Part shown: positions 3,410-64,000 of the stretch, piece after piece | Layout: each line of letters begins with the position of its first letter | Position numbering within the stretch: the stretch's first letter is position 1 | Source of the DNA: Thermodesulfobacteriota bacterium | GTDB lineage: Bacteria > Desulfobacterota_D > UBA1144 > Nemesobacterales > Nemesobacteraceae | NCBI GenBank assembly: GCA_965220925.1 | Contig: OZ244851.1 | Coordinates: 4,410-68,409 of the forward strand | Direction of reading: 5' to 3' | DNA length: 64,000 bases | Notes under the pieces: generated by a model | What the model saw: the letters and a program-made list of their open reading frames with translations, nothing else | Told to the model about the DNA's origin: nothing | The model's database searches: none | Made by a program: the position numbers and the translations under genes

Positions 3410-3484
3410 ATTCTCTCTACCGGGGTTAAGATTCTAAGGTTTGCCGGACGGTTTTCCTCTCTTTTTTCTTAGAAACGCGCTTCA

Positions 3485-4651: not shown

Positions 4652-4741
4652 ACGGTGTTTTCCCTGATTTTCTCAGTTCCCGCATAAATATAGCCATAAG
4701 AGACTAATTCAACGAAAAACCAAGTTGTATGTTAATTGCCT

Positions 4742-4770
4742 TTGACAATAATAAAACGCTGTAATATAAT
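4742..4770 (+). promoter_or_regulatory. Near-perfect sigma70-type promoter (TTGACA-17 bp-TATAAT) driving the outer-membrane protein gene
   Basis: TTGACA at 4742-4747, a 17-nt spacer, and TATAAT at 4765-4770. An RBS GGGAGGG sits at 4803-4809 and the ATG at 4817. Confidence 0.55.
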
Positions 4771-4816
4771 GGAAAAAAACAGAGGCGTATAAATTGTCTT
4801 TTGGGAGGGATGTCCA

Positions 4817-7603: not shown

Positions 7604-8059
7604 ATGAAAACCGTATGCAGTCATCCTACCGCTCACAGAGATTATATATTTGAGGAAAAATACGAAGCCGGTTTAGTATTGAAGGGTTCCGAAGTTAAAT
7701 CTCTAAGAGATGGGAACGCAAGCGTAAAAGAGAGTTTTGTGCTTATAAGGGGAAACGAAGCCAAGCTGATCAATTGTTACATAGCTCCATACACCGCCGC
7801 TAACGTTTTCAACCACGAGCCCACAAGAGAAAGGAAACTTCTTCTGAACTCTCACGAGATAAAAAGACTGATTGGAAAAACCAGTATTAGGGGATATACT
7901 TCAGTTCCTCTAAAAATTTATTTTAAAAACGGCTTTGCGAAACTTGAATTCGCTCTTGCCAGAGGCAAGAAGACGAGAGATAAAAGAGAGGATATCAAAC
8001 GTCGCGAGGCGGAAAGAGATATGCAGAAAGCCGTAAAACGATCTTTGAAACGTTCATAA
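7604..8059 (+). CDS. smpB: SsrA-binding protein
   Basis: 151-aa ORF with SmpB signature (GSEVKSLR, basic C-terminal tail). Immediately followed by the tmRNA gene. Confidence 0.9.
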   Translation: MKTVCSHPTAHRDYIFEEKYEAGLVLKGSEVKSLRDGNASVKESFVLIRGNEAKLINCYIAPYTAANVFNHEPTRERKLLLNSHEIKRLIGKTSIRGYTSVPLKIYFKNGFAKLEFALARGKKTRDKREDIKRREAERDMQKAVKRSLKRS

Positions 8060-8064
8060 GTAAG

Positions 8065-8415
<351 letters not shown>

Positions 8416-14406: not shown

Positions 14407-14510
14407 AAATCTATCCGGCGTTTTTTCGATCTTTACTTTTCACCCGGTCTTTTCCTCCAACCGCTTTCGATAATGTATAATAAGACTCCTTACCTTTTCG
14501 GAGCGACTAA

Positions 14511-16805
14511 ATGATTGTTAAAGATCATGCGGAACGGGAGCATTTTCACCTAAAACTAGTCCACGAGATAAGCGATCTGATAAACAAATCCGTGGGGCTG
14601 AATACCGTTTTGGGCAGAGTGGTGAGAAAAATCTCCTCCTCACTCAACTACGACGTTGTCTCCATATATGTTTGGGATAAGCCCAGAAATCTTCTGAAGC
14701 TTGCGGCCAATAGAGGTCTTAATGTTGAACCGAAGAGCGAAATTCTTCTTCGTTCGGATGAAGGTCTTACCGGAATGGTTTACAGAACGAAAGTACCCCT
14801 GGTCGCGATGCCCGCCTCGAAACACTCGAATTACAAATACTTTCCGGAAATAGGCGAGGAGGAATACGAAAGCTACATAGGAGTCCCCATAATGCTTCAC
14901 GACATATGCGTTGGCGTGCTCGTGGGTCAGAACAAAACTCCCATGCGGATAACTCCGGCCGAGCAGACGCTGTTTCAAATCGTCGCGCTTCGGCTGGCGG
15001 GGGTCTTGGAGGTGGCAAATACTCTGGATCGTTTAAAGCTTCCGTCTGCCGTAAAGCGTGAAACGAGAACTTATCAGGGAAAGGGAGTTTCCGAAGGCGT
15101 GGCGGTGGGAGAGGCGATTACTTTTCGCGGACTTTTCCGCAGTATGGCCAACATGGAAAAGTCTTTTCAGACTCCCCGGATAGAGAAAGAGAGGGTTCAG
15201 GCTTCTATTAAAAACGTTTCGGAGGAACTTAAGAACATTATAAAAAAAATGGATTCTGAAGGTAAGCTCTCGAAAAACGAACTGGACATATTTCGCGCTC
15301 ATCTGATGATCGTCGACAGTAGCGACATGGAAAATGGAACGATTAAACTCATAGAGGAAAAGAAAATCTCGGCGGAGGCCGCCGTGGTTGAATATCTTGA
15401 GTCTCACGCCTCCCTTTTCGAAGCCCTCGCCGATCCCTATATGAGGGAGAGGGCTCATGATTTTCGAGATATAGGCGAGAGGATTCTGCGTGATCTTACG
15501 CGTTCGAAAAAGGACGATATCAAGGCCCCGACAGGCAAAAAGCCTTCCATACTTTTCGCAAGAGAGATGGGAGTGTCTTTCATTTCGTCGATGGAGGCGG
15601 AGGTGGGGGGAATAGTGCTTGAAAAGGGCGGAGAAACGTCTCACGCGGTAATAATAGCGAAATCGCTGGGCATTCCGGCGGTGGTTGGCATAGAGAATAT
15701 CGCCAACCACATACGTCCCGGGGAAGAGGTCGTAATTGACGGAAGCGGTGGTTTTATCTTTACGAATCCTGACCAGATGCTCAAAGATGAGTACCTCTCC
15801 ATGCATCGAAAAACCATGGAACTTCGAAATTTCATAGAGACCGAAGCCGTAAAGACTTCCGGCGCCGGTCTTGAAATAGAGATAACGGCGACCGTGGGAA
15901 TTCCCGCCGATATTGAAGTGGCTAGTCGTTACGGAATCGAAAGCGTGGGACTTTTCAGAACGGAGTTCGCCTTTACTCAGTTTAAAAAATGGCCGAGCGT
16001 CAGATCTCAGCTCAAAGTCTACAAAAACATCGCCGAAAGTTTCCCTGGTTCGGTCACCGTCAGAACGCTTGACGTGGGTTCCGACAAGGTGCTTTCTTAT
16101 CTCAAGGTTCCCGATGAGGAAAACCCTCTTCTGGGACTTCGGTCGATCAGATTTTCCATGGAGTATCTGGACCTTTTCAGAGACCAGGTGAAATCCATAT
16201 TGCTTGCGGCGAAAAAAGGAGCGAATCTCAGGATTCTTCTCCCGATGATTTCAAACGTCTGGGAAGTTGAGACCGCGGCGCAAATAATAAGCGAACTTTG
16301 CGTCGAGATTAGCCTTTATCGAGATGACGTTCCAAAGCTTGGAATAATGATGGAGGTCCCCGCGCTTATTTATCAGTTGGAAGATTACGCGGATCTGATA
16401 GATTTCGTTTCCATAGGAACTAACGACCTAATACAGTATTTACTTGCGGTAGATAGAAATTCAAACGCCGTGGGGCATCTCTACACGGCGTTCCATCCTT
16501 CGGTGATCAGGATGCTTGATTTCGCAAGAGAACGGATAACCGCAAGCGGAAAAGAACTTTCCATCTGCGGCGAAATCGCCGGAGTTCCCTCGGGAACCCT
16601 GCTGATGCTCGCGCTTGGTTATCGCAACCTGAGCGTTGCGCCAATTCGGTTTCCCTACGTCAAATTTCTTTCGGATAGGCTGTCGGAGGAAGTGCTTGAA
16701 GAAGTCAGGTCGCACATACTTACCCTCGCCAAGGAGTCCGATATCGAAAGATACTTAAAAGACGTTCTTAATTCCGTAGATCCCATGTTGCTCGAAATAG
16801 ATTAA
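14511..16805 (+). CDS. ptsP: GAF-domain phosphoenolpyruvate-protein phosphotransferase (PTS enzyme I-Ntr type)
   Basis: 764-aa ORF. An N-terminal GAF domain is followed by EI phosphohistidine and PEP-utilising domains (GGETSHAVIIAKSLGIPAVVG, SIGTNDLIQYLLAVDR). Confidence 0.8.
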   Translation: MIVKDHAEREHFHLKLVHEISDLINKSVGLNTVLGRVVRKISSSLNYDVVSIYVWDKPRNLLKLAANRGLNVEPKSEILLRSDEGLTGMVYRTKVPLVAMPASKHSNYKYFPEIGEEEYESYIGVPIMLHDICVGVLVGQNKTPMRITPAEQTLFQIVALRLAGVLEVANTLDRLKLPSAVKRETRTYQGKGVSEGVAVGEAITFRGLFRSMANMEKSFQTPRIEKERVQASIKNVSEELKNIIKKMDSEGKLSKNELDIFRAHLMIVDSSDMENGTIKLIEEKKISAEAAVVEYLESHASLFEALADPYMRERAHDFRDIGERILRDLTRSKKDDIKAPTGKKPSILFAREMGVSFISSMEAEVGGIVLEKGGETSHAVIIAKSLGIPAVVGIENIANHIRPGEEVVIDGSGGFIFTNPDQMLKDEYLSMHRKTMELRNFIETEAVKTSGAGLEIEITATVGIPADIEVASRYGIESVGLFRTEFAFTQFKKWPSVRSQLKVYKNIAESFPGSVTVRTLDVGSDKVLSYLKVPDEENPLLGLRSIRFSMEYLDLFRDQVKSILLAAKKGANLRILLPMISNVWEVETAAQIISELCVEISLYRDDVPKLGIMMEVPALIYQLEDYADLIDFVSIGTNDLIQYLLAVDRNSNAVGHLYTAFHPSVIRMLDFARERITASGKELSICGEIAGVPSGTLLMLALGYRNLSVAPIRFPYVKFLSDRLSEEVLEEVRSHILTLAKESDIERYLKDVLNSVDPMLLEID

Positions 16806-49604: not shown

Positions 49605-49624
49605 TTGATTTGTCTATTAAATGC

Positions 49625-49654
49625 TTGATTTGTTTGTAATGCTAGTTATATAAT
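49625..49654 (+). promoter_or_regulatory. Candidate sigma70-type promoter for the giant repeat-protein gene (TTGATT-18 bp-TATAAT)
   Basis: TTGATT at 49625-49630 and TATAAT at 49649-49654, 10-25 nt upstream of the candidate GTG/TTG starts. A second TTGATT copy lies 20 nt further upstream. Confidence 0.4.
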
Positions 49655-49663
49655 GGGGTTACA

Positions 49664-52600
49664 GTGGGTTGGAGTATTTTGCTTTACTCGAAAATTGTTT
49701 CGTCGATTAGACGTGGTTTCAGGTGCGTAGTCGACTCGTTTGTCGTATTTTCCCTTGTGGCAGTATTTCTTTTGTTTTTGACCTCGGGGGCTCAATACGC
49801 GAAAGCGCAGTCTGTCCCCGCCAAGCCTGATCATTTCACCGTGGGAGTGTCTGGACTCGGTTTTAACGGTCAAGCCCAATTAAACTGGAGAAACCCGAAT
49901 AACCCCAACATAACGAAGTATCAGGTACGGCATAAGGCTGGAACGAGCTTCACATCCTTAGATAGTTGGGTGGATATTCCAGGTAGCGGTGCCAGCACAA
50001 GGAATCATCTTATAACAAATCTGACATTTGGAACGACCTATGCGTTCCAGGTACGGGCGGTGAATGGTAACGGAAACGGAGCGGCGAGCGATGTGCTAAC
50101 GGCGGCACCGACGCCATTGCCAGGTCCCAATGCTGCTGGCAGATTTGTTCATACACCAACAAATGTGGTAGTGGGACTTCCCGGGTTTAACAAGGTCAGT
50201 GTCAGTTGGGATTGGGATGATCCCATATGTTCCGCGCTTTCCGGTGAGCCCTACCTATATGAGGTTGTATACAGGAAGACTACAGGGGGAGTAGCTTGGG
50301 ATACGAACGATAGGGAGACCGACGCAGGTTCTTACGAAATTTACAGCGGAGCAACAACACTAGTGTTTCCTCTGGATGGATTTTTTGGAGAACCAGTATT
50401 GGATCCAGGGGAGTACGAAATCAGCGTTAACTACGCTGGTGGTAATCCCCCATGCAAATCAGGACCTACTGTGGCCGCATTTGGTTCTTGGACCTCTCCG
50501 GTCAGGGTCATGGTACCGGAGCTGTTAAAACTAACAGGGACTCCAGTAACGTTAACGGAGGGAGGTAGTGCCGAGACGTTCAGTGTGGCGTTGAGTGAAG
50601 AGCCGACGGGTAATGTGACGGTAACGGTAACGAGCAATGACACGGGAGCGGCGACGGTATCACCGAGCAGTCTTACGTTCACGCCCACAAACTATTCAAC
50701 GGCACAGGACGTAACTGTAACGCCTGTAGACGATAACGACGCGTTGGATGAGAGTGTATCGGTAAGTTTGAACGCTTCGGGAGGCGGATACGACGGAGCG
50801 GGTAAATATGTAACAGTAACGGTAACGGATGATGAGGATACGACGTTAGAACTTACGGGAACGCCTGTAAGCGTAACGGAGGGCGGAGCGGCGGGAACGT
50901 TCAGCGTGAAGTTAAGCGCGGAGCCGACGGAGACAGTAACGGTAACGGTAACAAGCGACGACACGGGAGCGGCGACGGTATCACCCGATACGTTAACGTT
51001 CACAACTACAGACTACGCGACGACGCAGGATGTAACTGTAACGCCAGTAGACGATAACGACGCGTTGGATGAGAGTGTAACGGTAAGTCTTGACGCTACT
51101 GGAGGGGGCTATGACGACTCGGATGAAGATGTAGCTGTAACGGTGACGGATGATGAGGATACGACGTTAGAACTTACGGGTACGCCAGTAAGCCTAACGG
51201 AAGGCGGAGCGGCCGGAACGTTCAGTGTGAAGTTAAGCGCGGAGCCGACGGAGACAGTAACTGTAACGGTAACAAGTGACGACACGGGAGCGGCGACGGT
51301 ATCACCCGGAACATTGACGTTCACTGTGGCAAACTACGCGACCACGCAAGACGTAACTGTAACGCCGGTAGACGATAACGACGCGTTGGATGAGAGTGTA
51401 ACGGTAAGTCTTGACGCTACTGGAGGGGGCTATAACGACTCGGATGAAGATGTAGCTGTAACGGTAACGGATGATGAGGATACGACATTAGAACTTACGG
51501 GTACGCCTGTAAACATAACGGAGGGAGGAGCGGCCGGGACGTTCAGTGTGAAGTTAAGCGCGGAGCCAACGGCAACGGTAACGGTAACAGTAACAAGTGA
51601 CGACACAGGAGCGGCGACGGTCTCACCCGGAACATTGACGTTCACTGTGGCAAACTACGCGACCACTCAGGATGTAACTGTAACGCCGGTAGACGATAAC
51701 GACGCGTTGGACGAGAGCGTAACGGTAAGTCTTGACGCAAGTGGAGGAGGGTATAACGACTCGGATGAGGATGTAGCTGTAACGGTAACGGATGACGAGG
51801 ATACGACATTGACGCTAAGCGTCGCTACTGTGTCTGTAACGGAGGGAGGAGCGGCCGGGACGTTCAGTGTGAGTTTAAGCGCTGAGCCGACGGCAACAGT
51901 AACTGTAACGGTAACAAGTGACGACACAGGGGCGGCGACTGTATCACCCGGGACATTAACGTTCACAACTACAAACTACGCGACCACTCAGGATGTAACG
52001 GTAACGCCAGTGGATGATAACGACGCGTTGGATGAGAGCGTAACGGTAAGCCTTGACGCAAGTGGAGGGGGCTATAACGACTCGGATGAGGATGTAGCTG
52101 TAACGGTAACGGATGATGAGGATACGACGTTAGAACTTACGGGAACTCCTGTAAACATAACGGAGGGAGGAGCGGCCGGGACATTCAGTGTGAAGTTAAG
52201 CGCTGAGCCAACGGCAACAGTAACGGTAACGGTAACAAGCGACGACACGGGAGCGGCGACGGTATCACCCGGGACATTAACGTTCACGACTACAAACTAC
52301 GCGACGACGCAGGACGTAACTGTAACGCCAGTGGATGATAACGACGCGTTGGATGAGAATGTAACGGTAAGTCTTGACGCAAGTGGAGGAGGATATAACG
52401 ACTCGGATGAGGATGTAGCTGTAACGGTAACGGATGACGAGGATACGACATTGACGCTAAGCGTCGCTACTGTGTCTGTAACGGAGGGAGGAGCGGCCGG
52501 GACATTCAGTGTGAAGTTAAGCGCGGAGCCGACGGCAACAGTAACTGTAACGGTAACAAGTGACGACACAGGGGCGGCGACGGTATCACCCGGGACATTA

Positions 52601-55600
52601 ACGTTCACAACTACAAACTACGCGACCACTCAGGACGTAACTGTAACGCCGGTAGACGATAACGACGCGTTGGATGAGAGCGTAACGGTAAGCCTGGACG
52701 CAAGTGGAGGGGGATATAACGACTCGGATGAGGATGTAGCTGTAACGGTAACGGATGATGAGGATACGACGTTAGAACTTGCGGGTACGCCTGTAAGCGT
52801 AACGGAGGGAGGAGCGGCCGGGACATTCAGTGTGAAGTTAAGCGCTGAGCCAACGGCAACAGTAACGGTAACGGTAACAAGTGACGACACGGGAGCGGCG
52901 ACGGTCTCACCCGGAACATTAACGTTCACAACTACAAACTACGCGACCACTCAGGACGTAACTGTAACGCCAGTGGATGATAACGACGCGTTGGATGAGA
53001 ATGTAACGGTAAGCCTTGACGCAAGTGGAGGCGGGTATAACGACTCGGATGAGGATGTAGCTGTAACGGTAACGGATGACGAGGATACGACGTTAGAACT
53101 TACGGGAACTCCTGTAAACATAACGGAGGGAGGAGCGGCCGGGACATTCAGTGTGAAGTTAAGCGCGGAGCCAACGGCAACGGTAACTGTAACAGTAACA
53201 AGCGACGACACGGGAGCGGCGACGGTATCACCCGGAACATTAACGTTCACTGTGGCAAACTACGCGACCACACAGGACGTAACGGTAACGCCGGTAGATG
53301 ATAACGACGCGTTGGATGAGAATGTAACGGTAAGCCTTGACGCAAGTGGAGGCGGGTATAACGACTCGGATGAGGATATAGCTGTAACGGTAACGGATGA
53401 TGAGGATACGACGTTAGAACTTGCGGGTACGCCCGTAAACATAACGGAGGGAGGAGCGGCCGGGACGTTCAGTGTGAAGTTAAGCGCGGAGCCAACGGCA
53501 ACGGTAACTGTAACGGTAACGAGTGACGACACGGGAGCGGCGACGGTCTCACCCGGAACATTAACGTTCACAACTACAAACTACGCGACGACGCAGGACG
53601 TAACTGTAACGCCGGTAGATGATAACGACGCGTTGGATGAGAATGTAACGGTAAGTCTAGACGCAAGTGGAGGAGGATATAACGACTCGGATGAGGATGT
53701 AGCTGTAACGGTAACGGATGACGAGGATACGACATTGACGCTAAGCGTCGCTACTGTGTCTGTAACGGAGGGAGGAGCGGCCGGGACGTTCAGTGTGAGT
53801 TTAAGCGCTGAGCCTACGGCAACAGTAACTGTAACGGTAACAAGTGACGACACAGGGGCGGTGACGGTATCACCCGGGACATTAACGTTCACAACTACAA
53901 ACTACGCGACCACTCAGGACGTAACTGTAACGCCGGTAGATGATAACGACGCGTTGGATGAGAATGTAACGGTAAGCCTGGACGCAAGTGGAGGGGGGTA
54001 TAACGACTCGGATGAGGATGTAGCTGTAACGGTAACGGATGACGAGGATACGACGTTAGAACTTACGGGAACGCCTGTAAACATAACGGAGGGAGGAGCG
54101 GCCGGGACGTTTAGTGTGAAGTTAAGCGCTGAGCCAACGGCAACAGTAACTGTAACGGTAACAAGTGACGACACAGGGGCGGCGACGGTATCACCCGGAA
54201 CATTAACGTTCACAACTACAAACTACGCGACCACTCAGGACGTAACGGTAACGCCGGTAGATGATAACGACGCGTTGGATGAGAATGTAACGGTAAGTCT
54301 TGACGCAAGTGGAGGAGGGTATAACGACTCGGATGAGGATGTAGCTGTAACGGTAACGGATGACGAGGATACGACATTGACGCTAAGCGTCGCTACTGTG
54401 TCTGTAACGGAGGGAGGAGCGGCCGGGACGTTCAGTGTGAGTTTAAGCGCTGAGCCGACGGCAACAGTAACTGTAACGGTAACAAGTGACGACACAGGGG
54501 CGGCGACGGTATCACCCGGGACATTAACGTTCACAACTACAAACTACGCGACCACTCAGGATGTAACGGTAACGCCAGTGGATGATAACGACGCGTTGGA
54601 TGAGAGCGTAACGGTAAGCCTTGACGCAAGTGGAGGCGGGTATAACGACTCGGATGAGGATGTAGCTGTAACGGTAACGGATGATGAGGATACGACGTTA
54701 GAACTTACGGGAACTCCTGTAAACATAACGGAGGGAGGAGCGGCCGGGACATTCAGTGTGAAGTTAAGCGCTGAGCCAACGGCAACAGTAACTGTAACGG
54801 TAACAAGTGACGACACGGGAGCGGCGACGGTATCACCCGGGACATTGACGTTCACAACTACAAACTACGCGACGACGCAGGACGTAACTGTAACGCCGGT
54901 AGATGATAACGACGCGTTGGATGAGAATGTAACGGTAAGTCTTGACGCAAGTGGAGGAGGATATAACGACTCGGATGAGGATGTAGCTGTAACGGTAACG
55001 GATGACGAGGATACGACATTGACGCTAAGCGTCGCTACTGTGTCTGTAACGGAGGGAGGAGCGGCCGGGACATTCAGTGTGAGTTTAAGCGCTGAGCCGA
55101 CGGCAACAGTAACTGTAACGGTAACAAGTGACGACACAGGAGCGGCGACGGTCTCACCCGGGACATTAACGTTCACAACTACAAACTACGCGACCACTCA
55201 GGATGTAACGGTAACGCCAGTGGATGATAACGACGCGTTGGATGAGAGCGTAACGGTAAGCCTGGACGCAAGTGGAGGGGGATATAACGACTCGGATGAG
55301 GATGTAGCTGTAACGGTAACGGATGATGAGGATACGACGTTAGAACTTACGGGAACTCCTGTAACGATAGTAGAAGGAGGAAACGCGGGAGCGTTCAGCG
55401 TGAGGTTAAGCGCTGAGCCAACGGCAACAGTAACTGTAACAGTAACAAGCGACGACACTGGAGCGGCGACGGTATCACCCGGGACATTAACGTTCACAAC
55501 TACAAACTACGCGACGACGCAGGATGTAACGGTAACGCCGGTAGACGATAACGACGCGTTGGATGAGAATGTAACGGTAAGCCTGGACGCAAGTGGAGGG

Positions 55601-58600
55601 GGCTATAACGACTCGGATGAGGATGTAGCTGTAACGGTAACGGATGATGAGGATACGACATTGACGCTAAGCGTTGCTACTGTGTCTGTAACGGAGGGAG
55701 GAGCGGCCGGGACGTTCAGTGTGAGTTTAAGCGCGGAGCCAACGGCAACGGTAACGGTAACGGTAACAAGCGACGACACAGGAGCGGCGACTGTATCACC
55801 CGGGACATTAACGTTCACAACTACAAACTATGCGACCACTCAGGACGTAACTGTAACGCCGGTAGATGATAACGACGCGTTGGATGAGAATGTAACGGTA
55901 AGCCTTGACGCAAGTGGAGGCGGGTATAACGACTCGGATGAGGATGTAGCTGTAACGGTAACGGATGATGAGGATACGACGTTAGAACTTACGGGAACGC
56001 CTGTAAACATAACGGAGGGAGGAGCGGCCGGGACATTCAGTGTGAAGTTAAGCGCGGAGCCAACGGCAACGGTAACGGTAACGGTAACAAGTGACGACAC
56101 AGGGGCGGCGACGGTATCACCCGGAACATTAACGTTCACAACTACAAACTACGCGACCACTCAGGACGTAACGGTAACGCCGGTAGATGATAACGACGCG
56201 TTGGATGAGAATGTAACGGTAAGCCTTGACGCAAGTGGAGGCGGGTATAACGACTCGGATGAGGATGTAGCTGTAACGGTAACGGATGATGAGGATACGA
56301 CGTTAGAACTTACGGGAACTCCTGTAACGATAGTAGAAGGAGGAAACGCGGGAACGTTCAGCGTGAAGTTAAGCGCTGAGCCAACGGCAACGGTAACGGT
56401 AACGGTAACAAGCGACGACACTGGAGCGGCGACTGTCTCACCCGGGACATTAACGTTCACAACTACAAACTACGCGACGACGCAGGACGTAACTGTAACG
56501 CCGGTAGATGATAACGACGCGTTGGATGAGAATGTAACGGTAAGCCTAGACGCAAGTGGAGGGGGGTATAACGACTCGGATGAGGATGTAGCTGTAACGG
56601 TAACGGATGACGAGGATACGACATTGACGCTAAGCGTCGCTACTGTGTCTGTAACGGAGGGAGGAGCGGCCGGGACATTCAGTGTGAAGTTAAGCGCGGA
56701 GCCAACGGCAACAGTAACTGTAACGGTAACAAGCGACGACACAGGGGCGGCGACGGTATCACCCGGGACATTAACGTTCACAACTACAAACTACGCGACG
56801 ACGCAGGACGTAACTGTAACGCCGGTAGATGATAACGACGCGTTGGATGAGAATGTAACGGTAAGTCTAGACGCAAGTGGAGGAGGATATAACGACTCGG
56901 ATGAGGATGTAGCTGTAACGGTAACGGATGACGAGGATACGACATTGACGCTAAGCGTCGCTACTGTGTCTGTAACGGAGGGAGGAGCGGCCGGTACGTT
57001 CAGTGTGAGTTTAAGCGCTGAGCCTACGGCAACAGTAACTGTAACGGTAACAAGCGACGACACAGGGGCGGCGACGGTCTCACCCGGAACATTGACGTTC
57101 ACTGTGGCAAACTACGCGACCACTCAGGACGTAACTGTAACGCCAGTGGATGATAACGACGCGTTGGATGAGAATGTAACGGTAAGCCTGGACGCAAGTG
57201 GAGGAGGATATAACGACTCGGATGAGGATGTAGCTGTAACGGTAACGGATGATGAGGATACGACGTTATCGTTAAGTGGAACTCCGGTAACTGTCGTAGA
57301 GGGAGGAAACGCGGGAACGTTCAGCGTGAGGTTAAGCGCGGAGCCAACGGCAACGGTAACGGTAACGGTAACAAGCGACGACACAGGAGCGGCGACGGTC
57401 TCACCCGGAACATTGACGTTCACAACTACAAACTACGCGACGACGCAGGACGTAACTGTAACGCCGGTAGATGATAACGACGCGTTGGATGAGAGCGTAA
57501 CGGTAAGCCTTGACGCAAGTGGAGGGGGGTATAACGACTCGGATGAGGATGTATCGGTAACGGTAACGGATGACGAGGATACGACGTTAGAACTTACGGG
57601 AACTCCTGTAAACATAACGGAGGGAGGAGCGGCCGGGACGTTCAGTGTGAAGTTAAGCGCTGAGCCAACGGCAACAGTAACTGTAACGGTAACAAGTGAC
57701 GACACGGGGGCGGCGACGGTATCACCCGGGACATTAACGTTCACAACTACAAACTACGCGACGACGCAGGACGTAACGGTAACGCCAGTGGACGATAACG
57801 ACGCGTTGGATGAGAGCGTAACGGTAAGCCTGGACGCAAGTGGAGGAGGATATAACGACTCGGATGAGGATGTAGCTGTAACGGTAACGGATGATGAGGA
57901 TACGACGTTAGAACTTACGGGAACTCCTGTAAACATAACGGAGGGAGGAGCGGCCGGGACGTTCAGTGTGAAGTTAAGCGCTGAGCCAACGGCAACGGTA
58001 ACTGTAACGGTAACAAGTGACGACACGGGGGCGGCGACGGTATCACCCGGGACATTAACGTTCACAACTACAAACTACGCGACGACGCAGGACGTAACGG
58101 TAACGCCAGTGGACGATAACGACGCGTTGGATGAGAATGTAACGGTAAGTCTAGACGCAAGTGGAGGGGGGTATAACGACTCGGATGAGGATGTAGCTGT
58201 AACGGTAACGGATGATGAGGATACGACGTTAGAACTTACGGGTACTCCTGTAAACATAACGGAGGGAGGAGCGGCCGGGACGTTCAGTGTGAAGTTAAGC
58301 GCGGAGCCAACGGCAACGGTAACGGTAACGGTAACAAGTGACGACACAGGGGCGGCGACGGTATCACCCGGAACATTAACGTTCACAACTACAAACTACG
58401 CGACCACTCAGGACGTAACGGTAACGCCGGTAGACGATAACGACGCGTTGGATGAGAGTGTAACGGTAAGTCTTGACGCAAGTGGAGGAGGGTATAACGA
58501 CTCGGATGAGGATGTAGCTGTAACGGTAACGGATGACGAGGATACGACATTGACGCTAAGCGTCGCTACTGTGTCTGTAACGGAGGGAGGAGCGGCCGGG

Positions 58601-61600
58601 ACGTTCAGTGTGAGTTTAAGCGCTGAGCCGACGGCAACAGTAACTGTAACGGTAACAAGTGACGACACAGGGGCGGTGACGGTATCACCCGGGACATTAA
58701 CGTTCACAACTACAAACTACGCGACCACTCAGGATGTAACGGTAACGCCAGTGGATGATAACGACGCGTTGGATGAGAGCGTAACGGTAAGCCTTGACGC
58801 AAGTGGAGGGGGCTATAACGACTCGGATGAGGATGTAGCTGTAACGGTAACGGATGATGAGGATACGACGTTAGAACTTACGGGAACTCCTGTAAACATA
58901 ACGGAGGGAGGAGCGGCCGGGACATTCAGTGTGAAGTTAAGCGCTGAGCCAACGGCAACAGTAACGGTAACGGTAACAAGTGACGACACGGGAGCGGCGA
59001 CGGTATCACCCGGGACATTAACGTTCACAACTACAAACTACGCGACGACGCAGGACGTAACTGTAACGCCGGTAGATGATAACGACGCGTTGGATGAGAA
59101 TGTAACGGTAAGTCTAGACGCAAGTGGAGGGGGCTATAACGACTCGGATGAGGATGTAGCTGTAACGGTAACGGATGACGAGGATACGACGTTAGAACTT
59201 ACGGGTACGCCTGTAAACATAACGGAGGGAGGAGCGGCCGGGACGTTTAGTGTGAAGTTAAGCGCTGAGCCTACGGCAACGGTAACTGTAACAGTAACAA
59301 GCGACGACACGGGAGCGGCGACGGTATCACCCGGGACATTAACGTTCACTGTGGCAAACTACGCGACGACGCAGGACGTAACTGTAACGCCAGTGGATGA
59401 TAACGACGCGTTGGATGAGAATGTAACGGTAAGCCTTGACGCAAGTGGAGGAGGATATAACGACTCGGATGAGGATGTAGCTGTAACGGTAACGGATGAT
59501 GAGGATACGACGTTAGAACTTACGGGAACTCCTGTAACGATAGTAGAAGGAGGAAACGCGGGAGCGTTCAGCGTGAGGTTAAGCGCTGAGCCGACGGCAA
59601 CAGTAACGGTAACGGTAACAAGTGACGACACGGGAGCGGCGACGGTCTCACCCGGGACATTAACGTTCACAACTACAAACTACGCGACCACTCAGGATGT
59701 AACGGTAACGCCGGTAGACGATAACGACGCGTTGGATGAGAATGTAACGGTAAGCCTGGACGCAAGTGGAGGAGGATATAACGACTCGGATGAGGATGTA
59801 GCTGTAACGGTAACGGATGACGAGGATACGACGTTAGAACTTACGGGTACGCCTGTAAGCGTAACGGAGGGAGGAGCGGCCGGGACGTTTAGTGTGAGGT
59901 TAAGCGCTGAGCCAACGGCAACAGTAACTGTAACGGTAACAAGCGACGACACGGGAGCGGCGACGGTATCACCCGGAACATTAACGTTCACAACTACAAA
60001 CTACGCGACCACTCAGGACGTAACGGTAACGCCAGTAGACGATAACGACGCGTTGGATGAGAATGTAACGGTAAGCCTGGACGCAAGTGGAGGGGGATAT
60101 AACGACTCGGATGAGGATGTAGCTGTAACGGTAACGGATGATGAGGATACGACGTTAGAACTTACGGGAACTCCTGTAACGATAGTAGAAGGAGGAAACG
60201 CGGGAACGTTCAGTGTGAGTTTAAGCGCGGAGCCAACGGCAACAGTAACTGTAACAGTAACAAGCGACGACACTGGAGCGGCGACTGTCTCACCCGGGAC
60301 ATTAACGTTCACAACTACAAACTACGCGACGACGCAGGACGTAACTGTAACGCCAGTAGACGATAACGACGCGTTGGATGAGAATGTAACGGTAAGCCTT
60401 GACGCAAGTGGAGGGGGCTATAACGACTCGGATGAGGATGTAGCTGTAACGGTAACGGATGATGAGGATACGACATTATCGTTAAGTGGAACTCCGGTAA
60501 CTGTCGTAGAGGGAGGAAACGCGGGAACGTTCAGCGTGAGGTTAAGCGCTGAGCCTACGGCAACAGTAACGGTAACAGTAACAAGTGACGATACAGGAGC
60601 GGCGACGGTCTCACCCGGGACATTGACGTTCACAACTACAAACTACGCGACGACGCAGGACGTAACTGTAACGCCGGTAGATGATAACGACGCGTTGGAT
60701 GAGAATGTAACGGTAAGCCTTGACGCAAGTGGAGGAGGATATAACGACTCGGATGAGGATGTAGCTGTAACGGTAACGGATGACGAGGATACGACATTGA
60801 CGCTAAGCGTCGCTACTGTGTCTGTAACGGAGGGAGGAGCGGCCGGGACATTCAGTGTGAGTTTAAGCGCGGAGCCGACGGCAACAGTAACTGTAACGGT
60901 AACAAGTGACGACACAGGGGCGGCGACGGTATCACCCGGGACATTAACGTTCACAACTACAAACTACGCGACCACTCAGGATGTAACTGTAACGCCAGTG
61001 GATGATAACGACGCGTTGGATGAGAGCGTAACGGTAAGCCTTGACGCAAGTGGAGGGGGGTATAACGACTCGGATGAGGATGTAGCTGTAACGGTAACGG
61101 ACGATGAGGATACGACGTTAGAACTTACGGGTACTCCTGTAAACATAACGGAGGGAGGAGCGGCCGGTACGTTCAGTGTGAGTTTAAGCGCGGAGCCAAC
61201 GGCAACGGTAACGGTAACGGTAACAAGCGACGACACGGGAGCGGCGACGGTATCACCCGGGACATTGACGTTCACAACTACAAACTACGCGACGACGCAG
61301 GACGTAACTGTAACGCCGGTAGATGATAACGACGCGTTGGATGAGAATGTAACGGTAAGTCTTGACGCAAGTGGAGGAGGATATAACGACTCGGATGAGG
61401 ATGTAGCTGTAACGGTAACGGATGACGAGGATACGACATTGACGCTAAGCGTCGCTACTGTGTCTGTAACGGAGGGAGGAGCGGCCGGGACATTCAGTGT
61501 GAGTTTAAGCGCGGAGCCGACGGCAACAGTAACTGTAACGGTAACAAGTGACGACACAGGGGCGGCGACGGTCTCACCCGGGACATTAACGTTCACAACT

Positions 61601-64000
61601 ACAAACTACGCGACCACTCAGGATGTAACTGTAACGCCAGTGGATGATAACGACGCGTTGGATGAGAGCGTAACGGTAAGCCTTGACGCAAGTGGAGGGG
61701 GGTATAACGACTCGGATGAGGATGTAGCTGTAACGGTAACGGATGACGAGGATACGACGTTAGAACTTACGGGAACTCCTGTAACGATAGTAGAAGGAGG
61801 AAACGCGGGAGCGTTCAGCGTGAGGTTAAGCGCTGAGCCAACGGCAACAGTAACTGTAACAGTAACAAGCGACGACACGGGAGCGGCGACGGTATCACCC
61901 GGAACATTAACGTTCACAACTACAAACTACGCGACCACTCAGGACGTAACGGTAACGCCAGTGGATGATAACGACGCGTTGGATGAGAATGTAACGGTAA
62001 GCCTGGACGCAAGTGGAGGGGGATATAACGACTCGGATGAGGATGTAGCTGTAACGGTAACGGATGATGAGGATACGACGTTAGAACTTACGGGAACTCC
62101 TGTAACGATAGTAGAAGGAGGAAACGCGGGAACGTTCAGTGTGAGTTTAAGCGCGGAGCCAACGGCAACAGTAACTGTAACAGTAACAAGCGACGACACT
62201 GGAGCGGCGACTGTCTCACCCGGGACATTAACGTTCACAACTACAAACTACGCGACCACTCAGGACGTAACTGTAACGCCAGTAGACGATAACGACGCGT
62301 TGGATGAGAATGTAACGGTAAGCCTTGACGCAAGTGGAGGCGGGTATAACGACTCGGATGAGGATGTAGCTGTAACGGTAACGGATGATGAGGATACGAC
62401 ATTATCGTTAAGTGGAACTCCGGTAACTGTCGTAGAGGGAGGAAACGCGGGAACGTTCAGCGTGAGGTTAAGCGCGGAGCCAACGGCAACGGTAACGGTA
62501 ACAGTAACAAGTGACGATACAGGAGCGGCGACGGTATCACCCGGGACATTGACGTTCACAACTACAAACTACGCGACGACGCAGGACGTAACTGTAACGC
62601 CGGTAGATGATAACGACGCGTTGGATGAGAATGTAACGGTAAGTCTAGACGCAAGTGGAGGAGGATATAACGACTCGGATGAGGATGTAGCTGTAACGGT
62701 AACGGATGATGAGGATACGACGTTAGAACTTGCGGGTACGCCTGTAAGCGTAACGGAGGGAGGAGCGGCCGGGACGTTCAGTGTGAAGTTAAGCGCGGAG
62801 CCAACGGCAACGGTAACTGTAACGGTAACAAGCGACGACACGGGAGCGGCGACGGTCTCACCCGGAACATTGACGTTCACAACTACAAACTACGCGACGA
62901 CGCAGGACGTAACGGTAACGCCGGTAGACGATAACGACGCGTTGGATGAGAATGTAACGGTAAGCCTTGACGCAAGTGGAGGCGGGTATAACGACTCGGA
63001 TGAGGATGTAGCTGTAACGGTAACGGATGATGAGGATACGACGTTAGAACTTACGGGAACGCCTGTAACGATAGTAGAAGGAGGAAACGCGGGAGCGTTC
63101 AGCGTGAGGTTAAGCGCTGAGCCGACGGCAACGGTAACGGTAACAGTAACAAGTGACGACACAGGGGCGGCGACGGTATCACCCGGGACATTAACGTTCA
63201 CAACTACAAACTACGCGACGACGCAGGACGTAACTGTAACGCCAGTGGATGATAACGACGCGTTGGATGAGAATGTAACGGTAAGCCTGGACGCAAGTGG
63301 AGGCGGATATAACGACTCGGATGAGGATGTAGCTGTAACGGTAACGGATGATGAGGATACGACGTTAGAACTTACGGGTACGCCTGTAAACATAACGGAG
63401 GGAGGAGCGGCCGGGACGTTCAGTGTGAGGTTAAGCGCGGAGCCAACGGCAACGGTAACGGTAACGGTAACAAGTGACGACACAGGGGCGGCGACGGTCT
63501 CACCCGGGACATTAACGTTCACAACTACAAACTACGCGACCACTCAGGACGTAACTGTAACGCCGGTAGATGATAACGACGCGTTGGATGAGAATGTAAC
63601 GGTAAGCCTGGACGCAAGTGGAGGGGGCTATAACGACTCGGATGAGGATGTAGCTGTAACGGTAACGGATGATGAGGATACGACGTTAGAACTTACGGGA
63701 ACTCCTGTAACGATAGTAGAAGGAGGAAACGCGGGAACGTTCAGTGTGAGTTTAAGCGCTGAGCCTACGGCAACAGTAACTGTAACAGTAACAAGCGACG
63801 ACACTGGAGCGGCGACTGTCTCACCCGGGACATTAACGTTCACAACTACAAACTACGCGACCACTCAGGACGTAACTGTAACGCCAGTAGACGATAACGA
63901 CGCGTTGGATGAGAATGTAACGGTAAGCCTTGACGCAAGTGGAGGCGGGTATAACGACTCGGATGAGGATGTAGCTGTAACGGTAACGGATGATGAGGAT
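49664..64000 (+). CDS. Giant secreted/surface repeat protein, 3'-truncated by the window: signal peptide, 2 fibronectin type III-like domains, then about 42 tandem 107-aa acidic Calx-beta-like domains (putative Ca2+-binding adhesin stalk)
   Basis: Hand translation of the plus-strand frame (codon positions with coordinate mod 3 = 2) is open from the TAG at 49643-49645 to the window end. Candidate starts are GTG 49664 or TTG 49679 after a GGAG RBS. The N-terminus is positively charged then hydrophobic (KIVSSIRRGFRCVVDSFVVFSLVAVFLLFLTSGAQYAKAQS). An FN3-like domain follows (LNWRNPNNPNITKYQVRHK...TTYAFQVRAVNGNG). From about 50515 comes the repeat: TLELTGTPVNITEGGAAGTFSVKLSAEPTATVTVTVTSDDTGAATVSPGTLTFTTTNYATTQDVTVTPVDDNDALDENVTVSLDASGGGYNDSDEDVAVTVTDDEDT. 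The ORF track does not list it because it has no in-window stop codon. Confidence 0.8.
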   Translation, partial: MGWSILLYSKIVSSIRRGFRCVVDSFVVFSLVAVFLLFLTSGAQYAKAQSVPAKPDHFTVGVSGLGFNGQAQLNWRNPNNPNITKYQVRHKAGTSFTSLDSWVDIPGSGASTRNHLITNLTFGTTYAFQVRAVNGNGNGAASDVLTAAPTPLPGPNAAGRFVHTPTNVVVGLPGFNKVSVSWDWDDPICSALSGEPYLYEVVYRKTTGGVAWDTNDRETDAGSYEIYSGATTLVFPLDGFFGEPVLDPGEYEISVNYAGGNPPCKSGPTVAAFGSWTSPVRVMVPELLKLTGTPVTLTEGGSAETFSVALSEEPTGNVTVTVTSNDTGAATVSPSSLTFTPTNYSTAQDVTVTPVDDNDALDESVSVSLNASGGGYDGAGKYVTVTVTDDEDTTLELTGTPVSVTEGGAAGTFSVKLSAEPTETVTVTVTSDDTGAATVSPDTLTFTTTDYATTQDVTVTPVDDNDALDESVTVSLDATGGGYDDSDEDVAVTVTDDEDTTLELTGTPVSLTEGGAAGTFSVKLSAEPTETVTVTVTSDDTGAATVSPGTLTFTVANYATTQDVTVTPVDDNDALDESVTVSLDATGGGYNDSDEDVAVTVTDDEDTTLELTGTPVNITEGGAAGTFSVKLSAEPTATVTVTVTSDDTGAATVSPGTLTFTVANYATTQDVTVTPVDDNDALDESVTVSLDASGGGYNDSDEDVAVTVTDDEDTTLTLSVATVSVTEGGAAGTFSVSLSAEPTATVTVTVTSDDTGAATVSPGTLTFTTTNYATTQDVTVTPVDDNDALDESVTVSLDASGGGYNDSDEDVAVTVTDDEDTTLELTGTPVNITEGGAAGTFSVKLSAEPTATVTVTVTSDDTGAATVSPGTLTFTTTNYATTQDVTVTPVDDNDALDENVTVSLDASGGGYNDSDEDVAVTVTDDEDTTLTLSVATVSVTEGGAAGTFSVKLSAEPTATVTVTVTSDDTGAATVSPGTLTFTTTNYATTQDVTVTPVDDNDALDESVTVSLDASGGGYNDSDEDVAVTVTDDEDTTLELAGTPVSVTEGGAAGTFSVKLSAEPTATVTVTVTSDDTGAATVSPGTLTFTTTNYATTQDVTVTPVDDNDALDENVTVSLDASGGGYNDSDEDVAVTVTDDEDTTLELTGTPVNITEGGAAGTFSVKLSAEPTATVTVTVTSDDTGAATVSPGTLTFTVANYATTQDVTVTPVDDNDALDENVTVSLDASGGGYNDSDEDIAVTVTDDEDTTLELAGTPVNITEGGAAGTFSVKLSAEPTATVTVTVTSDDTGAATVSPGTLTFTTTNYATTQDVTVTPVDDNDALDENVTVSLDASGGGYNDSDEDVAVTVTDDEDTTLTLSVATVSVTEGGAAGTFSVSLSAEPTATVTVTVTSDDTGAVTVSPGTLTFTTTNYATTQDVTVTPVDDNDALDENVTVSLDASGGGYNDSDEDVAVTVTDDEDTTLELTGTPVNITEGGAAGTFSVKLSAEPTATVTVTVTSDDTGAATVSPGTLTFTTTNYATTQDVTVTPVDDNDALDENVTVSLDASGGGYNDSDEDVAVTVTDDEDTTLTLSVATVSVTEGGAAGTFSVSLSAEPTATVTVTVTSDDTGAATVSPGTLTFTTTNYATTQDVTVTPVDDNDALDESVTVSLDASGGGYNDSDEDVAVTVTDDEDTTLELTGTPVNITEGGAAGTFSVKLSAEPTATVTVTVTSDDTGAATVSPGTLTFTTTNYATTQDVTVTPVDDNDALDENVTVSLDASGGGYNDSDEDVAVTVTDDEDTTLTLSVATVSVTEGGAAGTFSVSLSAEPTATVTVTVTSDDTGAATVSPGTLTFTTTNYATTQDVTVTPVDDNDALDESVTVSLDASGGGYNDSDEDVAVTVTDDEDTTLELTGTPVTIVEGGNAGAFSVRLSAEPTATVTVTVTSDDTGAATVSPGTLTFTTTNYATTQDVTVTPVDDNDALDENVTVSLDASGGGYNDSDEDVAVTVTDDEDTTLTLSVATVSVTEGGAAGTFSVSLSAEPTATVTVTVTSDDTGAATVSPGTLTFTTTNYATTQDVTVTPVDDNDALDENVTVSLDASGGGYNDSDEDVAVTVTDDEDTTLELTGTPVNITEGGAAGTFSVKLSAEPTATVTVTVTSDDTGAATVSPGTLTFTTTNYATTQDVTVTPVDDNDALDENVTVSLDASGGGYNDSDEDVAVTVTDDEDTTLELTGTPVTIVEGGNAGTFSVKLSAEPTATVTVTVTSDDTGAATVSPGTLTFTTTNYATTQDVTVTPVDDNDALDENVTVSLDASGGGYNDSDEDVAVTVTDDEDTTLTLSVATVSVTEGGAAGTFSVKLSAEPTATVTVTVTSDDTGAATVSPGTLTFTTTNYATTQDVTVTPVDDNDALDENVTVSLDASGGGYNDSDEDVAVTVTDDEDTTLTLSVATVSVTEGGAAGTFSVSLSAEPTATVTVTVTSDDTGAATVSPGTLTFTVANYATTQDVTVTPVDDNDALDENVTVSLDASGGGYNDSDEDVAVTVTDDEDTTLSLSGTPVTVVEGGNAGTFSVRLSAEPTATVTVTVTSDDTGAATVSPGTLTFTTTNYATTQDVTVTPVDDNDALDESVTVSLDASGGGYNDSDEDVSVTVTDDEDTTLELTGTPVNITEGGAAGTFSVKLSAEPTATVTVTVTSDDTGAATVSPGTLTFTTTNYATTQDVTVTPVDDNDALDESVTVSLDASGGGYNDSDEDVAVTVTDDEDTTLELTGTPVNITEGGAAGTFSVKLSAEPTATVTVTVTSDDTGAATVSPGTLTFTTTNYATTQDVTVTPVDDNDALDENVTVSLDASGGGYNDSDEDVAVTVTDDEDTTLELTGTPVNITEGGAAGTFSVKLSAEPTATVTVTVTSDDTGAATVSPGTLTFTTTNYATTQDVTVTPVDDNDALDESVTVSLDASGGGYNDSDEDVAVTVTDDEDTTLTLSVATVSVTEGGAAGTFSVSLSAEPTATVTVTVTSDDTGAVTVSPGTLTFTTTNYATTQDVTVTPVDDNDALDESVTVSLDASGGGYNDSDEDVAVTVTDDEDTTLELTGTPVNITEGGAAGTFSVKLSAEPTATVTVTVTSDDTGAATVSPGTLTFTTTNYATTQDVTVTPVDDNDALDENVTVSLDASGGGYNDSDEDVAVTVTDDEDTTLELTGTPVNITEGGAAGTFSVKLSAEPTATVTVTVTSDDTGAATVSPGTLTFTVANYATTQDVTVTPVDDNDALDENVTVSLDASGGGYNDSDEDVAVTVTDDEDTTLELTGTPVTIVEGGNAGAFSVRLSAEPTATVTVTVTSDDTGAATVSPGTLTFTTTNYATTQDVTVTPVDDNDALDENVTVSLDASGGGYNDSDEDVAVTVTDDEDTTLELTGTPVSVTEGGAAGTFSVRLSAEPTATVTVTVTSDDTGAATVSPGTLTFTTTNYATTQDVTVTPVDDNDALDENVTVSLDASGGGYNDSDEDVAVTVTDDEDTTLELTGTPVTIVEGGNAGTFSVSLSAEPTATVTVTVTSDDTGAATVSPGTLTFTTTNYATTQDVTVTPVDDNDALDENVTVSLDASGGGYNDSDEDVAVTVTDDEDTTLSLSGTPVTVVEGGNAGTFSVRLSAEPTATVTVTVTSDDTGAATVSPGTLTFTTTNYATTQDVTVTPVDDNDALDENVTVSLDASGGGYNDSDEDVAVTVTDDEDTTLTLSVATVSVTEGGAAGTFSVSLSAEPTATVTVTVTSDDTGAATVSPGTLTFTTTNYATTQDVTVTPVDDNDALDESVTVSLDASGGGYNDSDEDVAVTVTDDEDTTLELTGTPVNITEGGAAGTFSVSLSAEPTATVTVTVTSDDTGAATVSPGTLTFTTTNYATTQDVTVTPVDDNDALDENVTVSLDASGGGYNDSDEDVAVTVTDDEDTTLTLSVATVSVTEGGAAGTFSVSLSAEPTATVTVTVTSDDTGAATVSPGTLTFTTTNYATTQDVTVTPVDDNDALDESVTVSLDASGGGYNDSDEDVAVTVTDDEDTTLELTGTPVTIVEGGNAGAFSVRLSAEPTATVTVTVTSDDTGAATVSPGTLTFTTTNYATTQDVTVTPVDDNDALDENVTVSLDASGGGYNDSDEDVAVTVTDDEDTTLELTGTPVTIVEGGNAGTFSVSLSAEPTATVTVTVTSDDTGAATVSPGTLTFTTTNYATTQDVTVTPVDDNDALDENVTVSLDASGGGYNDSDEDVAVTVTDDEDTTLSLSGTPVTVVEGGNAGTFSVRLSAEPTATVTVTVTSDDTGAATVSPGTLTFTTTNYATTQDVTVTPVDDNDALDENVTVSLDASGGGYNDSDEDVAVTVTDDEDTTLELAGTPVSVTEGGAAGTFSVKLSAEPTATVTVTVTSDDTGAATVSPGTLTFTTTNYATTQDVTVTPVDDNDALDENVTVSLDASGGGYNDSDEDVAVTVTDDEDTTLELTGTPVTIVEGGNAGAFSVRLSAEPTATVTVTVTSDDTGAATVSPGTLTFTTTNYATTQDVTVTPVDDNDALDENVTVSLDASGGGYNDSDEDVAVTVTDDEDTTLELTGTPVNITEGGAAGTFSVRLSAEPTATVTVTVTSDDTGAATVSPGTLTFTTTNYATTQDVTVTPVDDNDALDENVTVSLDASGGGYNDSDEDVAVTVTDDEDTTLELTGTPVTIVEGGNAGTFSVSLSAEPTATVTVTVTSDDTGAATVSPGTLTFTTTNYATTQDVTVTPVDDNDALDENVTVSLDASGGGYNDSDEDVAVTVTDDED
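50515..64000 (+). repeat. Tandem array of about 42 near-identical 321-bp coding repeats (first unit 328 bp, then 41 units in exact 321-bp register), continuing beyond the window end
   Basis: Minus-strand artefact ORFs all begin MNVNVPG, and their start coordinates fall every 321 bp exactly (51003, 51324, ... 63843). Direct reading shows units differing only at a few cassette positions. Confidence 0.95.

Follow-up and report, generated by a model that had tools for sequence, protein, structure and literature searches.

The DNA analysed here comprises 64,000 nucleotides of contig OZ244851.1 (assembly GCA_965220925.1, positions 4,410 to 68,409 of the forward strand) from a Thermodesulfobacteriota bacterium; this whole stretch is referred to as the window. 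Its last 14.3 kb hold the beginning of a giant gene on the plus strand, the product of which consists, behind a short N-terminal part, of tandem repeats of 107 residues (Table 1). The reading frame comprises 4,779 codons with zero stops, a run far beyond chance, and continues past the end of the window, as had been stated in a first-pass annotation made from the letters alone. That annotation had named in-frame stops or frameshifts in the units it did not translate by hand as a possible refutation, and none occur in the 4,779 codons.

Table 1. Features of the giant gene and its upstream border (positions counted from the first nucleotide of the window)
Feature	Position	Strand	Basis and remarks
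Promoter candidate, sigma-70-like, TTGATT-18 nt-TATAAT	49625..49654	+	10/12 matches; ends 10 nt before GTG 49664
5' 14.3 kb of the giant gene	49664..64000	+	4,779 of 10,887 codons; no in-frame stop and public gene table
Predicted Sec-type signal peptide, residues 1-48	49664..49807	+	basic n-region IRRGFR, hydrophobic core SFVVFSLVAVFLLFLTSGA, AKA/QS cleavage motif; read from the sequence by eye
Fibronectin type III (FN3) domain, residues ~49-152	49808..50119	+	Pfam PF00041, residues 71-146
Orphan N-terminal domain 2, residues ~153-286 (~135 residues), two Cys, predicted all-beta	50120..50521	+	AlphaFold2 (AF2) model, predicted local distance difference test (pLDDT) ~40-55
41 complete tandem units of 321 nt / 107 residues, divergent Calx-beta-like domain with predicted immunoglobulin (Ig) fold	50522..63682	+	periodicity, identities, AF2, remote homology, dN/dS
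Unit 42, cut by the end of the window, 106 of 107 codons (318 nt)	63683..64000	+	translation

The gene and its repeat array

The source contig was matched through the exact OtsAB protein encoded just upstream of the giant gene. In a public gene table it is listed as the ENA contig ERZ26695579:ctg120052_7.48x_l (808,335 bp), with one product of 10,887 residues whose start corresponds to position 49664 of the window. The gene measures approximately 32.7 kb and ends about 18.3 kb past the window, which holds its first 44%; the results at the protein level cover the N-terminal 4,779 codons, and 6,108 C-terminal residues lie outside. The predicted product has a mass of about 1.1 MDa and an isoelectric point (pI) of approximately 4. 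It is nameless in the gene table and has no recorded Pfam match there, but the gene call as such exists, so the first-pass annotation was mistaken in regarding the gene as probably unannotated.

The closest in-frame stop upstream is located at 49643, and only two start candidates, GTG 49664 and TTG 49679, are found ahead of the hydrophobic stretch. If the promoter candidate of Table 1 is used, there is no room for a ribosome-binding site in front of GTG 49664, which makes TTG 49679 the likelier start. As approximately 0.8 sites of such a score are expected by chance in the 500-nt region, the promoter is regarded as a candidate only. A GGAG occurs 4 nt upstream of TTG 49679, and this codon may be the true start of the gene. 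A 90%-identical orthologue, which shares the N-terminus and comprises nine units or more, is found on an independent contig obtained from a different sample (L086); the homology of this orthologue to the giant gene starts inside the signal peptide, at IRRGFRC, and is preceded by a different, ATG-initiated extension.

With Tandem Repeats Finder one array was detected, at 50548-64000, which has a period of 321 nt, 41.9 copies and 90% matches, and the motif TVTDDEDT occurs 41 times at a constant spacing of 107 residues. In the unit register used here the non-repeat N-terminal part comprises residues 1-286. The mean pairwise identity between units amounts to 93% for protein and 90% for DNA; the 41 complete units are all distinct at the DNA level, and 25 variants are distinct as protein. 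This is in agreement with the earlier description of 40-plus near-identical modules, and the four motif strings quoted in that description are all present.

Variable sites among the 41 units are distributed over codon positions 1/2/3 as 14/10/53, and the Nei-Gojobori method gives a nonsynonymous distance (dN) of 0.039 and a synonymous distance (dS) of 0.30, i.e. a dN/dS of 0.13. The codon-position pattern together with this ratio is an argument that the array is real coding sequence, and rules out a non-coding repeat or a pseudogene. Every unit is under purifying selection, and the giant gene is a real coding sequence and a single gene. The constraint differs along the unit: codons 28-107 show a dS of 0.24 and a dN/dS of 0.03, codons 1-27 a dS of 0.63 and a dN/dS of 0.24, which suggests that the C-terminal three-quarters of the unit have been homogenised in a mosaic fashion. 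The amino-acid variation among the units at 50522-63682 clusters in the first 27 residues, corresponding to strands A-B, and consists of a small number of discrete variants whose order is irregular; no higher-order repeat structure was found among the units.

The longest exact repeat measures about 295 nt and is shorter than one full unit. There are no exact multi-unit duplications, and the best pair of four-unit blocks is 97.7% identical. The absence of an exact full-unit repeat and the divergence of even the best block pair argue against an assembler loop. Each unit contains 20 Asp/Glu versus 1 Lys/Arg; the array has a pI of about 4, and the repeats are devoid of Cys, Met, Trp and His. Extrapolated to the full product, (10,887-286)/107 equals 99.07; the full protein would have roughly 95-99 units, that is either 99 units and a remainder of 8 residues, or about 95 units and a C-terminal domain about 436 residues long.

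We further report an extreme bias in synonymous codon choice. A purine (A/G) occupies the third base of four-fold degenerate codons in 82.5% of the cases in the array (50522-64000), compared to 56% in the giant gene's N-terminal portion and 44.5% in 12 neighbouring housekeeping genes. Val is encoded by GTA in 83% of the cases in the array versus 13% in the neighbours, and Thr by ACC in 2% versus 37%. In related giant genes the purine fraction at these sites is 61-67% compared to 43-51% in their neighbours. Possible causes are a founder effect of the amplified unit, a foreign origin, or selection on the 32.7-kb mRNA, for instance for being a poor Rho substrate or for low self-complementarity.

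The minus strand at 49646-63843 holds 43 antisense open reading frames (ORFs) of 71-103 residues, or roughly one for each unit, which arise mechanically from the repeat. The first-pass annotation had expected such spurious ORFs to be emitted in place of the gene; they do exist, but they are not called in the public gene table and have not displaced the real call.

The N-terminal part starts with the predicted signal peptide, whose hydrophobic core spans about 19 residues. Residues 1-48 are plausible as a signal for the Sec pathway and signal peptidase I (Sec/SPI), as far as their layout can be judged. The part that begins at IRRGFRC is conserved in the L086 orthologue, and complete relatives likewise begin with signal-like N-termini. 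The FN3 domain behind it was recognised by PF00041 with an E-value of 9.9e-13 and 48.6 bits (cutoff 25), and its AF2 model has a pLDDT of 80-92. From the earlier proposal of a signal peptide followed by two FN3-like domains the signal layout (by eye) and the first FN3 domain were recovered, the second was not: domain 2 has no Pfam match even at E<=10, no homologue in the collected sets besides the orthologue (L086/P0001), and a low-confidence model only, and its designation as an FN3 domain is not supported. If the protein is an autotransporter, this orphan domain would be placed near the distal tip.

Family and fold of the repeat unit

To classify the unit we compared it with domain models, protein collections and structures. 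A single unit yielded no Pfam match to Calx-beta (PF03160) even at E<=10, the best match being fn3_6 with an E-value of 0.016. Four units yielded no Calx-beta match at E<=0.01 and only weak matches to fn3_6, DUF5006 and DUF4232, and nothing exceeded the NCBIfam cutoffs. A word-indexed protein search with the unit returned 466 homologous fragments, and an exhaustive search of 1.84 billion cluster representatives returned 20,580 proteins at E<=0.001, 4,341 of them at E<=1e-30. Many members of this family are proteins of 2,000-8,000 residues with 20-66 unit copies. When 121 homologous fragments were compared with Pfam, fn3_6 was found in 73, LapA in 24, a GBS104-like Ig domain in 13 and Calx-beta (PF03160) in 8.

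Giants built from the unit domain are common in metagenomes. The individual protein was not met again: an exact 35-mer of the array has no match in the GTDB species-representative genomes, the only match of a conserved 21-mer in the JGI metagenomes is due to chance and falls into a sensor-kinase region without repeats, and the 10,887-residue protein itself is not among the matches of the word-indexed and the exhaustive protein search.

A model of three consecutive units calculated with AF2 is all-beta with about nine strands per unit (pLDDT 97.3, predicted template-modelling score 0.82), and according to this model the unit adopts a beta-sandwich of the type found in Ca2+-binding domains (CBD). 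Together with the pI of about 4 it bears out the earlier reading of acidic tandem beta-sandwich modules. Foldseek against the PDB retrieved tandem Ig-like arrays, namely ciliary ASH-domain proteins, the S-layer protein SbsB, the tetra-repeat of the Aeromonas RTX adhesin 6xi1 (E-value 4e-8), cadherins and NCX1 CBD12. The proposed likeness to the extender domains of giant adhesins is supported by the Aeromonas RTX repeats and by the LapA matches among the fragments.

A canonical Calx-beta set was formed from 55 "DY-type" domains collected from the same giant proteins, and all eight members that were tested pass PF03160 with 28.7-78 bits. In an hhalign comparison the unit family (141 sequences) aligns to this set over 101 of 107 columns with a probability of 98.0% and an E-value of 2.1e-13. 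From this remote homology we conclude that the unit belongs to the Calx-beta superfamily as a divergent branch, one that is missed by current models. The designation as Calx-beta-like thus stands in substance, while the Pfam test once proposed for it gave no Calx-beta match.

Acidic residues are not only frequent in the unit but also occur at defined positions. In 140 domains from 140 different proteins E13 is conserved in 100%, D71 in 99%, D73 in 81% and D/E77 in 75% of the cases, followed at the end of the unit by D/E103 (99%), D104 (74%) and D/E105 (91%). These are the most conserved polar positions of the family, and the core positions P28, F53, W/Y58 and Q62 are conserved alongside them. 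The motif positions, i.e. the E of the A-B loop, the DxD..E of the E-F loop and the DDD after strand G, are present in every unit. In the hhalign comparison they coincide with the canonical Calx-beta motifs xEG, D..dE..E and DDD, which we take to be the Ca2+-ligand positions E385, D446-E454 and D498-D500 of NCX1 CBD1. The cluster NDSDED at positions 91-96 is specific to the giant protein and not conserved in the family. The idea that Asp/Glu clusters at the module boundaries resemble Ca2+-binding loops can be upheld for the motif-aligned residues, which are the most conserved ones, but not for NDSDED.

Residues D103-E105 close one unit and lead straight into the next, so that the acidic cluster should sit at the inter-domain junction. 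In MpIBP and SiiE, Ca2+ bound at acidic inter-domain junctions stiffens the rod. The acidic cluster most likely serves as a Ca2+ site at the boundary to the following module, and we infer both Ca2+ binding and a rod-like stiffness for the array.

Host, relatives and secretion route

The host is an uncultured diderm member of the Dadabacteria (Thermodesulfobacteriota). OtsAB is 79-85% identical to proteins of metagenome-assembled genomes (MAGs) labelled Candidatus Dadabacteria or Thermodesulfobacteriota, and an outer-membrane beta-barrel gene and ccm genes are present in the window. The complete chromosomes of the OtsAB-related Dadabacteria MAGs measure 1.5-2.4 Mb; in a genome of this size the giant gene would take a share of about 1.4-2.2%. 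Several of the related MAGs bear names that match studies of sponge microbiomes, and Dadabacteria are regularly found in association with sponges (PMC8163846, PMC12648040).

A hint towards the secretion route arises from the giant relatives. Many of them end in a non-repeat region of approximately 440-530 residues with an aromatic last residue. The Pfam model Autotransporter (PF03797, cutoff 26 bits) matches P0125 with 42.2 bits and P0126 with 38.7 bits. With a local hidden Markov model of the C-terminal region, an autotransporter-like domain was detected in 62 of the 150 best giant relatives. It lies at the very C-terminus in 51 of these 62 proteins, 37 of which end in F, W or Y. Altogether 24 complete proteins combine a signal-like N-terminus with the autotransporter-like domain; in a few giant relatives SLH-like C-terminal repeats are present instead.

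Two relatives are of particular relevance. P0195 (L084 18620-20993) is a complete Dadabacterial protein of 5,703 residues that has a signal peptide, an FN3 domain and about 26 unit-type domains, behind which come a single canonical Calx-beta domain and an end of the autotransporter-like type. It is encoded 8.6 kb downstream of otsAB and a reductase gene. P0126 (L089 847-24049; 4,682 residues) is the closest long relative, with units 54% identical. It is preceded, with an overlap of 29 nt, by a gene of the same kind encoding 3,060 residues, and both are probably one gene for about 7,700 residues split by a frameshift.

Read from these sequences, the combination of a Sec signal, a Calx-beta-like array and a type Va barrel is a recurrent architecture, and it would be the most economical explanation of the N-terminal signal peptide in the giant protein. 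The first-pass annotation had set this signal peptide against the C-terminal signal for the type I secretion system (T1SS) in giant adhesins. The contrast probably has an ordinary answer, the related giants being Sec-dependent autotransporters. Genes for a T1SS, i.e. for an ABC transporter, a membrane fusion protein or a TolC-like protein, do not occur among the called genes in the 49.6 kb upstream, and the window contains no secretion-system genes. For the giant protein itself a C-terminal autotransporter barrel, by analogy with the relatives, has a chance that comes close to even.

The position of the gene differs between strains. In about 30 related Dadabacteria genomes an aldo/keto reductase gene directly follows otsAB with no giant gene between them, which rules out the giant gene as a conserved neighbour of otsAB; unit-type repeat genes near otsAB occur in only two of them (L023 and L021). 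None of the reductase cluster members that were looked up is on the 808,335-bp contig. The L086 orthologue stands behind an acyl-CoA dehydrogenase gene and near a Y1 transposase gene. The giant gene is located in a strain-variable region (49605-49703 of the window) and appears to be mobile. A strain-variable, moving giant gene agrees with the lateral transfer of adhesion genes among sponge symbionts (PMC8163846).

The variable regions that flank miaA-otsAB in the relatives L091, L093 and L094 (about 3,000-5,200 and 13,900-15,500) contain an eukaryote-like gene with an SRCR domain, an FN3 gene of about 509 residues, IS1595 and DDE transposases, a restriction-modification pair of the BsuBI/PstI type and toxin-antitoxin genes. 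The rest of the window is housekeeping in nature and comprises cytochrome c maturation, nusA-infB-rbfA-truB-rpsO-pnp-miaA, uvrB, citrate synthase, and tmRNA with smpB. The latter form an ordinary pair (7604-8415) in which smpB is followed by the tmRNA gene at 8064-8415 (Rfam 183.5 bits; tag AEPINALAA).

A possible surface fibre and its known counterparts

We propose, with a probability of roughly 0.6, that the giant protein is an exported array and most likely a very long cell-surface adhesion fibre. The N-terminal signal peptide would route the protein through the Sec pathway, and roughly 95-99 tandem divergent Calx-beta-like beta-sandwich modules of 107 residues would fold outside the cell. 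The acidic cluster at the C-terminal end of each module (E13, D71, D73, E77 and D103-D104-E105) would bind Ca2+ at the junction, and the bound Ca2+ would turn the chain into a stiff rod with a length of a few tenths of a micrometre. In other adhesins an Ig-like domain measures about 4 nm, which for about 99 units leads to an estimated span of about 0.4 micrometre. By analogy with the relatives the fibre would be anchored in the outer membrane by a C-terminal type Va beta-barrel, and the FN3 and the orphan domain would represent the distal tip and act as a ligand-binding head. The function would probably be a Ca2+-dependent adhesion to host matrix or to other cells.

Several observations weigh against this proposal. 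With regard to the unit, no Pfam or NCBIfam model assigns it to Calx-beta, a sequence-profile search of the PDB found no solved structure related by sequence (best E-value 0.038), and the family profile aligned with an NCX1 CBD1 sequence entered by hand in the terminal DDD motif only. With regard to the anchor, PF03797 scores 24.6 bits in the Dadabacterial P0195, just under the cutoff, the close relative P0161 has no PF03797 match, and the quotient of 99.07 fits 99 units plus 8 residues without any C-terminal domain equally well. Classical type Va passengers are beta-helices and not Ig arrays, and we know of no autotransporter passenger of 10,000 residues.

An alternative we consider unlikely is that the protein is exported by Sec without being an autotransporter. 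The array would then run to the stop codon or end in another anchor, and the protein would be released or loosely attached, via a type II secretion system, in an S-layer-like manner or as part of a sheath or matrix, with a structural or Ca2+-binding role therein rather than that of a tip-directed adhesin. A barrel-like end is present, however, in the closest relatives that are complete, among them the single complete protein from Dadabacteria, and anchoring by SLH is typical of other types of cell envelope. A distinct head of FN3 and orphan domain at one end also suggests a polar fibre rather than a lattice.

The gene could also be real and its copy number and size of 10,887 residues an assembly artefact, which would be compatible with the other explanations. 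The contig name indicates a coverage of 7.48x, the array of about 31.8 kb exceeds HiFi reads of typical length, some multi-unit blocks are 96-98% identical to one another, and the L086 orthologue is broken at a contig end, carries a frameshift and has a coverage of 2x. Against this stand the 41 visible units, all distinct in their DNA, exact repeats that do not exceed about 295 nt, a frame without interruption over the 14.3 kb read here and, going by the gene table, over 32.7 kb, the listing of the contig under two samples in that table, and the common occurrence of relatives with 40-66 copies. We rate an artefact of this kind as quite improbable. Going by its format alone, the contig name resembles those of the metaMDBG HiFi assemblies used in genome projects on sponge and other symbioses (PMC12648040).

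Very improbable, finally, is an adhesin of the LapA/MpIBP/SiiE type that leaves the cell in one step by a T1SS through C-terminal RTX repeats and signal, the N-terminal hydrophobic stretch not being a cleaved Sec signal: tandem Ig-like extender arrays with acidic junctions are a hallmark of such adhesins, the matches to 6xi1 and LapA fit, BapP of Pseudoalteromonas tunicata combines a predicted Sec signal with a neighbouring T1SS (PMC12153261) and the C-terminal 6,108 residues are outside the sequence read, but the n-h-c layout with AKA/Q is conserved in the L086 orthologue, the upstream region is free of T1SS genes, the recurring C-terminal module among the 150 closest giants is the autotransporter-like barrel (62/150), with SLH-like repeats in few, and an RTX end was not noticed among these 150, in which no systematic search for RTX ends was made.

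The gene represents a clean long-read example of the rare class of proteins above 10,000 residues, and a single surface fibre would occupy 1-2% of the genome of the cell. The unit family marks an annotation gap, since 20,580 representatives homologous to Calx-beta are without a Pfam or NCBIfam model or a solved structure. The protein and its relatives point to autotransporters with Ig arrays as passengers, which raises the question of how a megadalton chain passes across the periplasm and the outer membrane. For research on symbiosis the protein offers a specific candidate for a host attachment of Dadabacteria that depends on Ca2+. Sponge symbionts are enriched in adhesion genes with Calx-beta, FN3 and cadherin domains, and such genes undergo lateral transfer among them (PMC8163846, PMC11706023); the cell-aggregation factors of sponges themselves are built from Calx-beta domains (PMC5400394). 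We rate it as distinctly unlikely that the protein stands, as the largest member, for a class of type V autotransporters that is essentially undescribed and widespread in uncultured bacteria. The passengers of this class would be chains of tens to about 100 Calx-beta-like domains with Ca2+ sites in place of the beta-helix, carried here on a mobile strain-variable locus of a Dadabacterium with a small genome, with possible relevance for host recognition. In this reading, and provided that a sponge is the host, the fibre could interact with or imitate the Ca2+-dependent self-recognition of the sponge.

Compared to known Calx-beta domains (PF03160; CBD1-CBD2 of NCX1/CALX, integrin beta4, bacterial repeats) the unit fails the Pfam model and does not have the segment G-x-A-x-A-G-x-DY; its family shows a signature of its own consisting of P28, LTFT, N-W/Y58, Q62 and GG-Y90. 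With the giant RTX/T1SS adhesins (MpIBP of Marinomonas primoryensis, LapA, SiiE, 6xi1) the protein shares the megadalton size, about 100 near-identical beta-sandwich repeats of approximately 100-110 residues and the acidic inter-domain junctions, Ca2+ stiffening being a property of those adhesins. It differs from them by a Sec-type signal peptide in the place of their N-terminal retention module, by another repeat family, by the absence of T1SS genes upstream and by relatives that end in autotransporter-like barrels.

The N-terminal signal peptide, as predicted, and the PF03797-type C-terminal domain of the relatives with its aromatic last residue resemble type Va autotransporters. The passenger would here be an array of Ig-like domains according to the AF2 model, whereas theirs is a beta-helix, and it would be several-fold longer than characterised passengers; the barrel is deduced from the relatives. 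BapP, which carries a predicted Sec/SPI signal and Calx-beta and BIg repeats, mediates Ca2+-dependent adhesion by experiment (PMC12153261). Both proteins have a predicted Sec signal and tandem beta-sandwich repeats of the Calx-beta type and come from a marine bacterium. BapP has 12 repeats, an N-terminal beta-propeller and an adjacent T1SS, whereas the present protein has about 99 repeats and a head of FN3 type, with no T1SS seen in the DNA covered.

Other bacterial proteins of more than 10,000 residues are SwmB of Synechococcus and Ebh of Staphylococcus. The class as a whole, which has been surveyed (bioRxiv 10.1101/2023.11.21.568195), is rare, highly repetitive and extracellular, with proposed roles in adhesion or at the surface, and the giant protein shares these traits; its repeat family and taxon are different and the genome of its host is small. 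Giant adhesins composed of some 100 nearly identical Ig-like repeats that bind Ca2+ are familiar from MpIBP, SiiE and LapA. The giant protein is a striking example of an already known kind of protein and not a new kind; less ordinary are its size relative to a genome of about 2 Mb, its large unmodelled repeat family, the likely autotransporter context and the synonymous purine bias.

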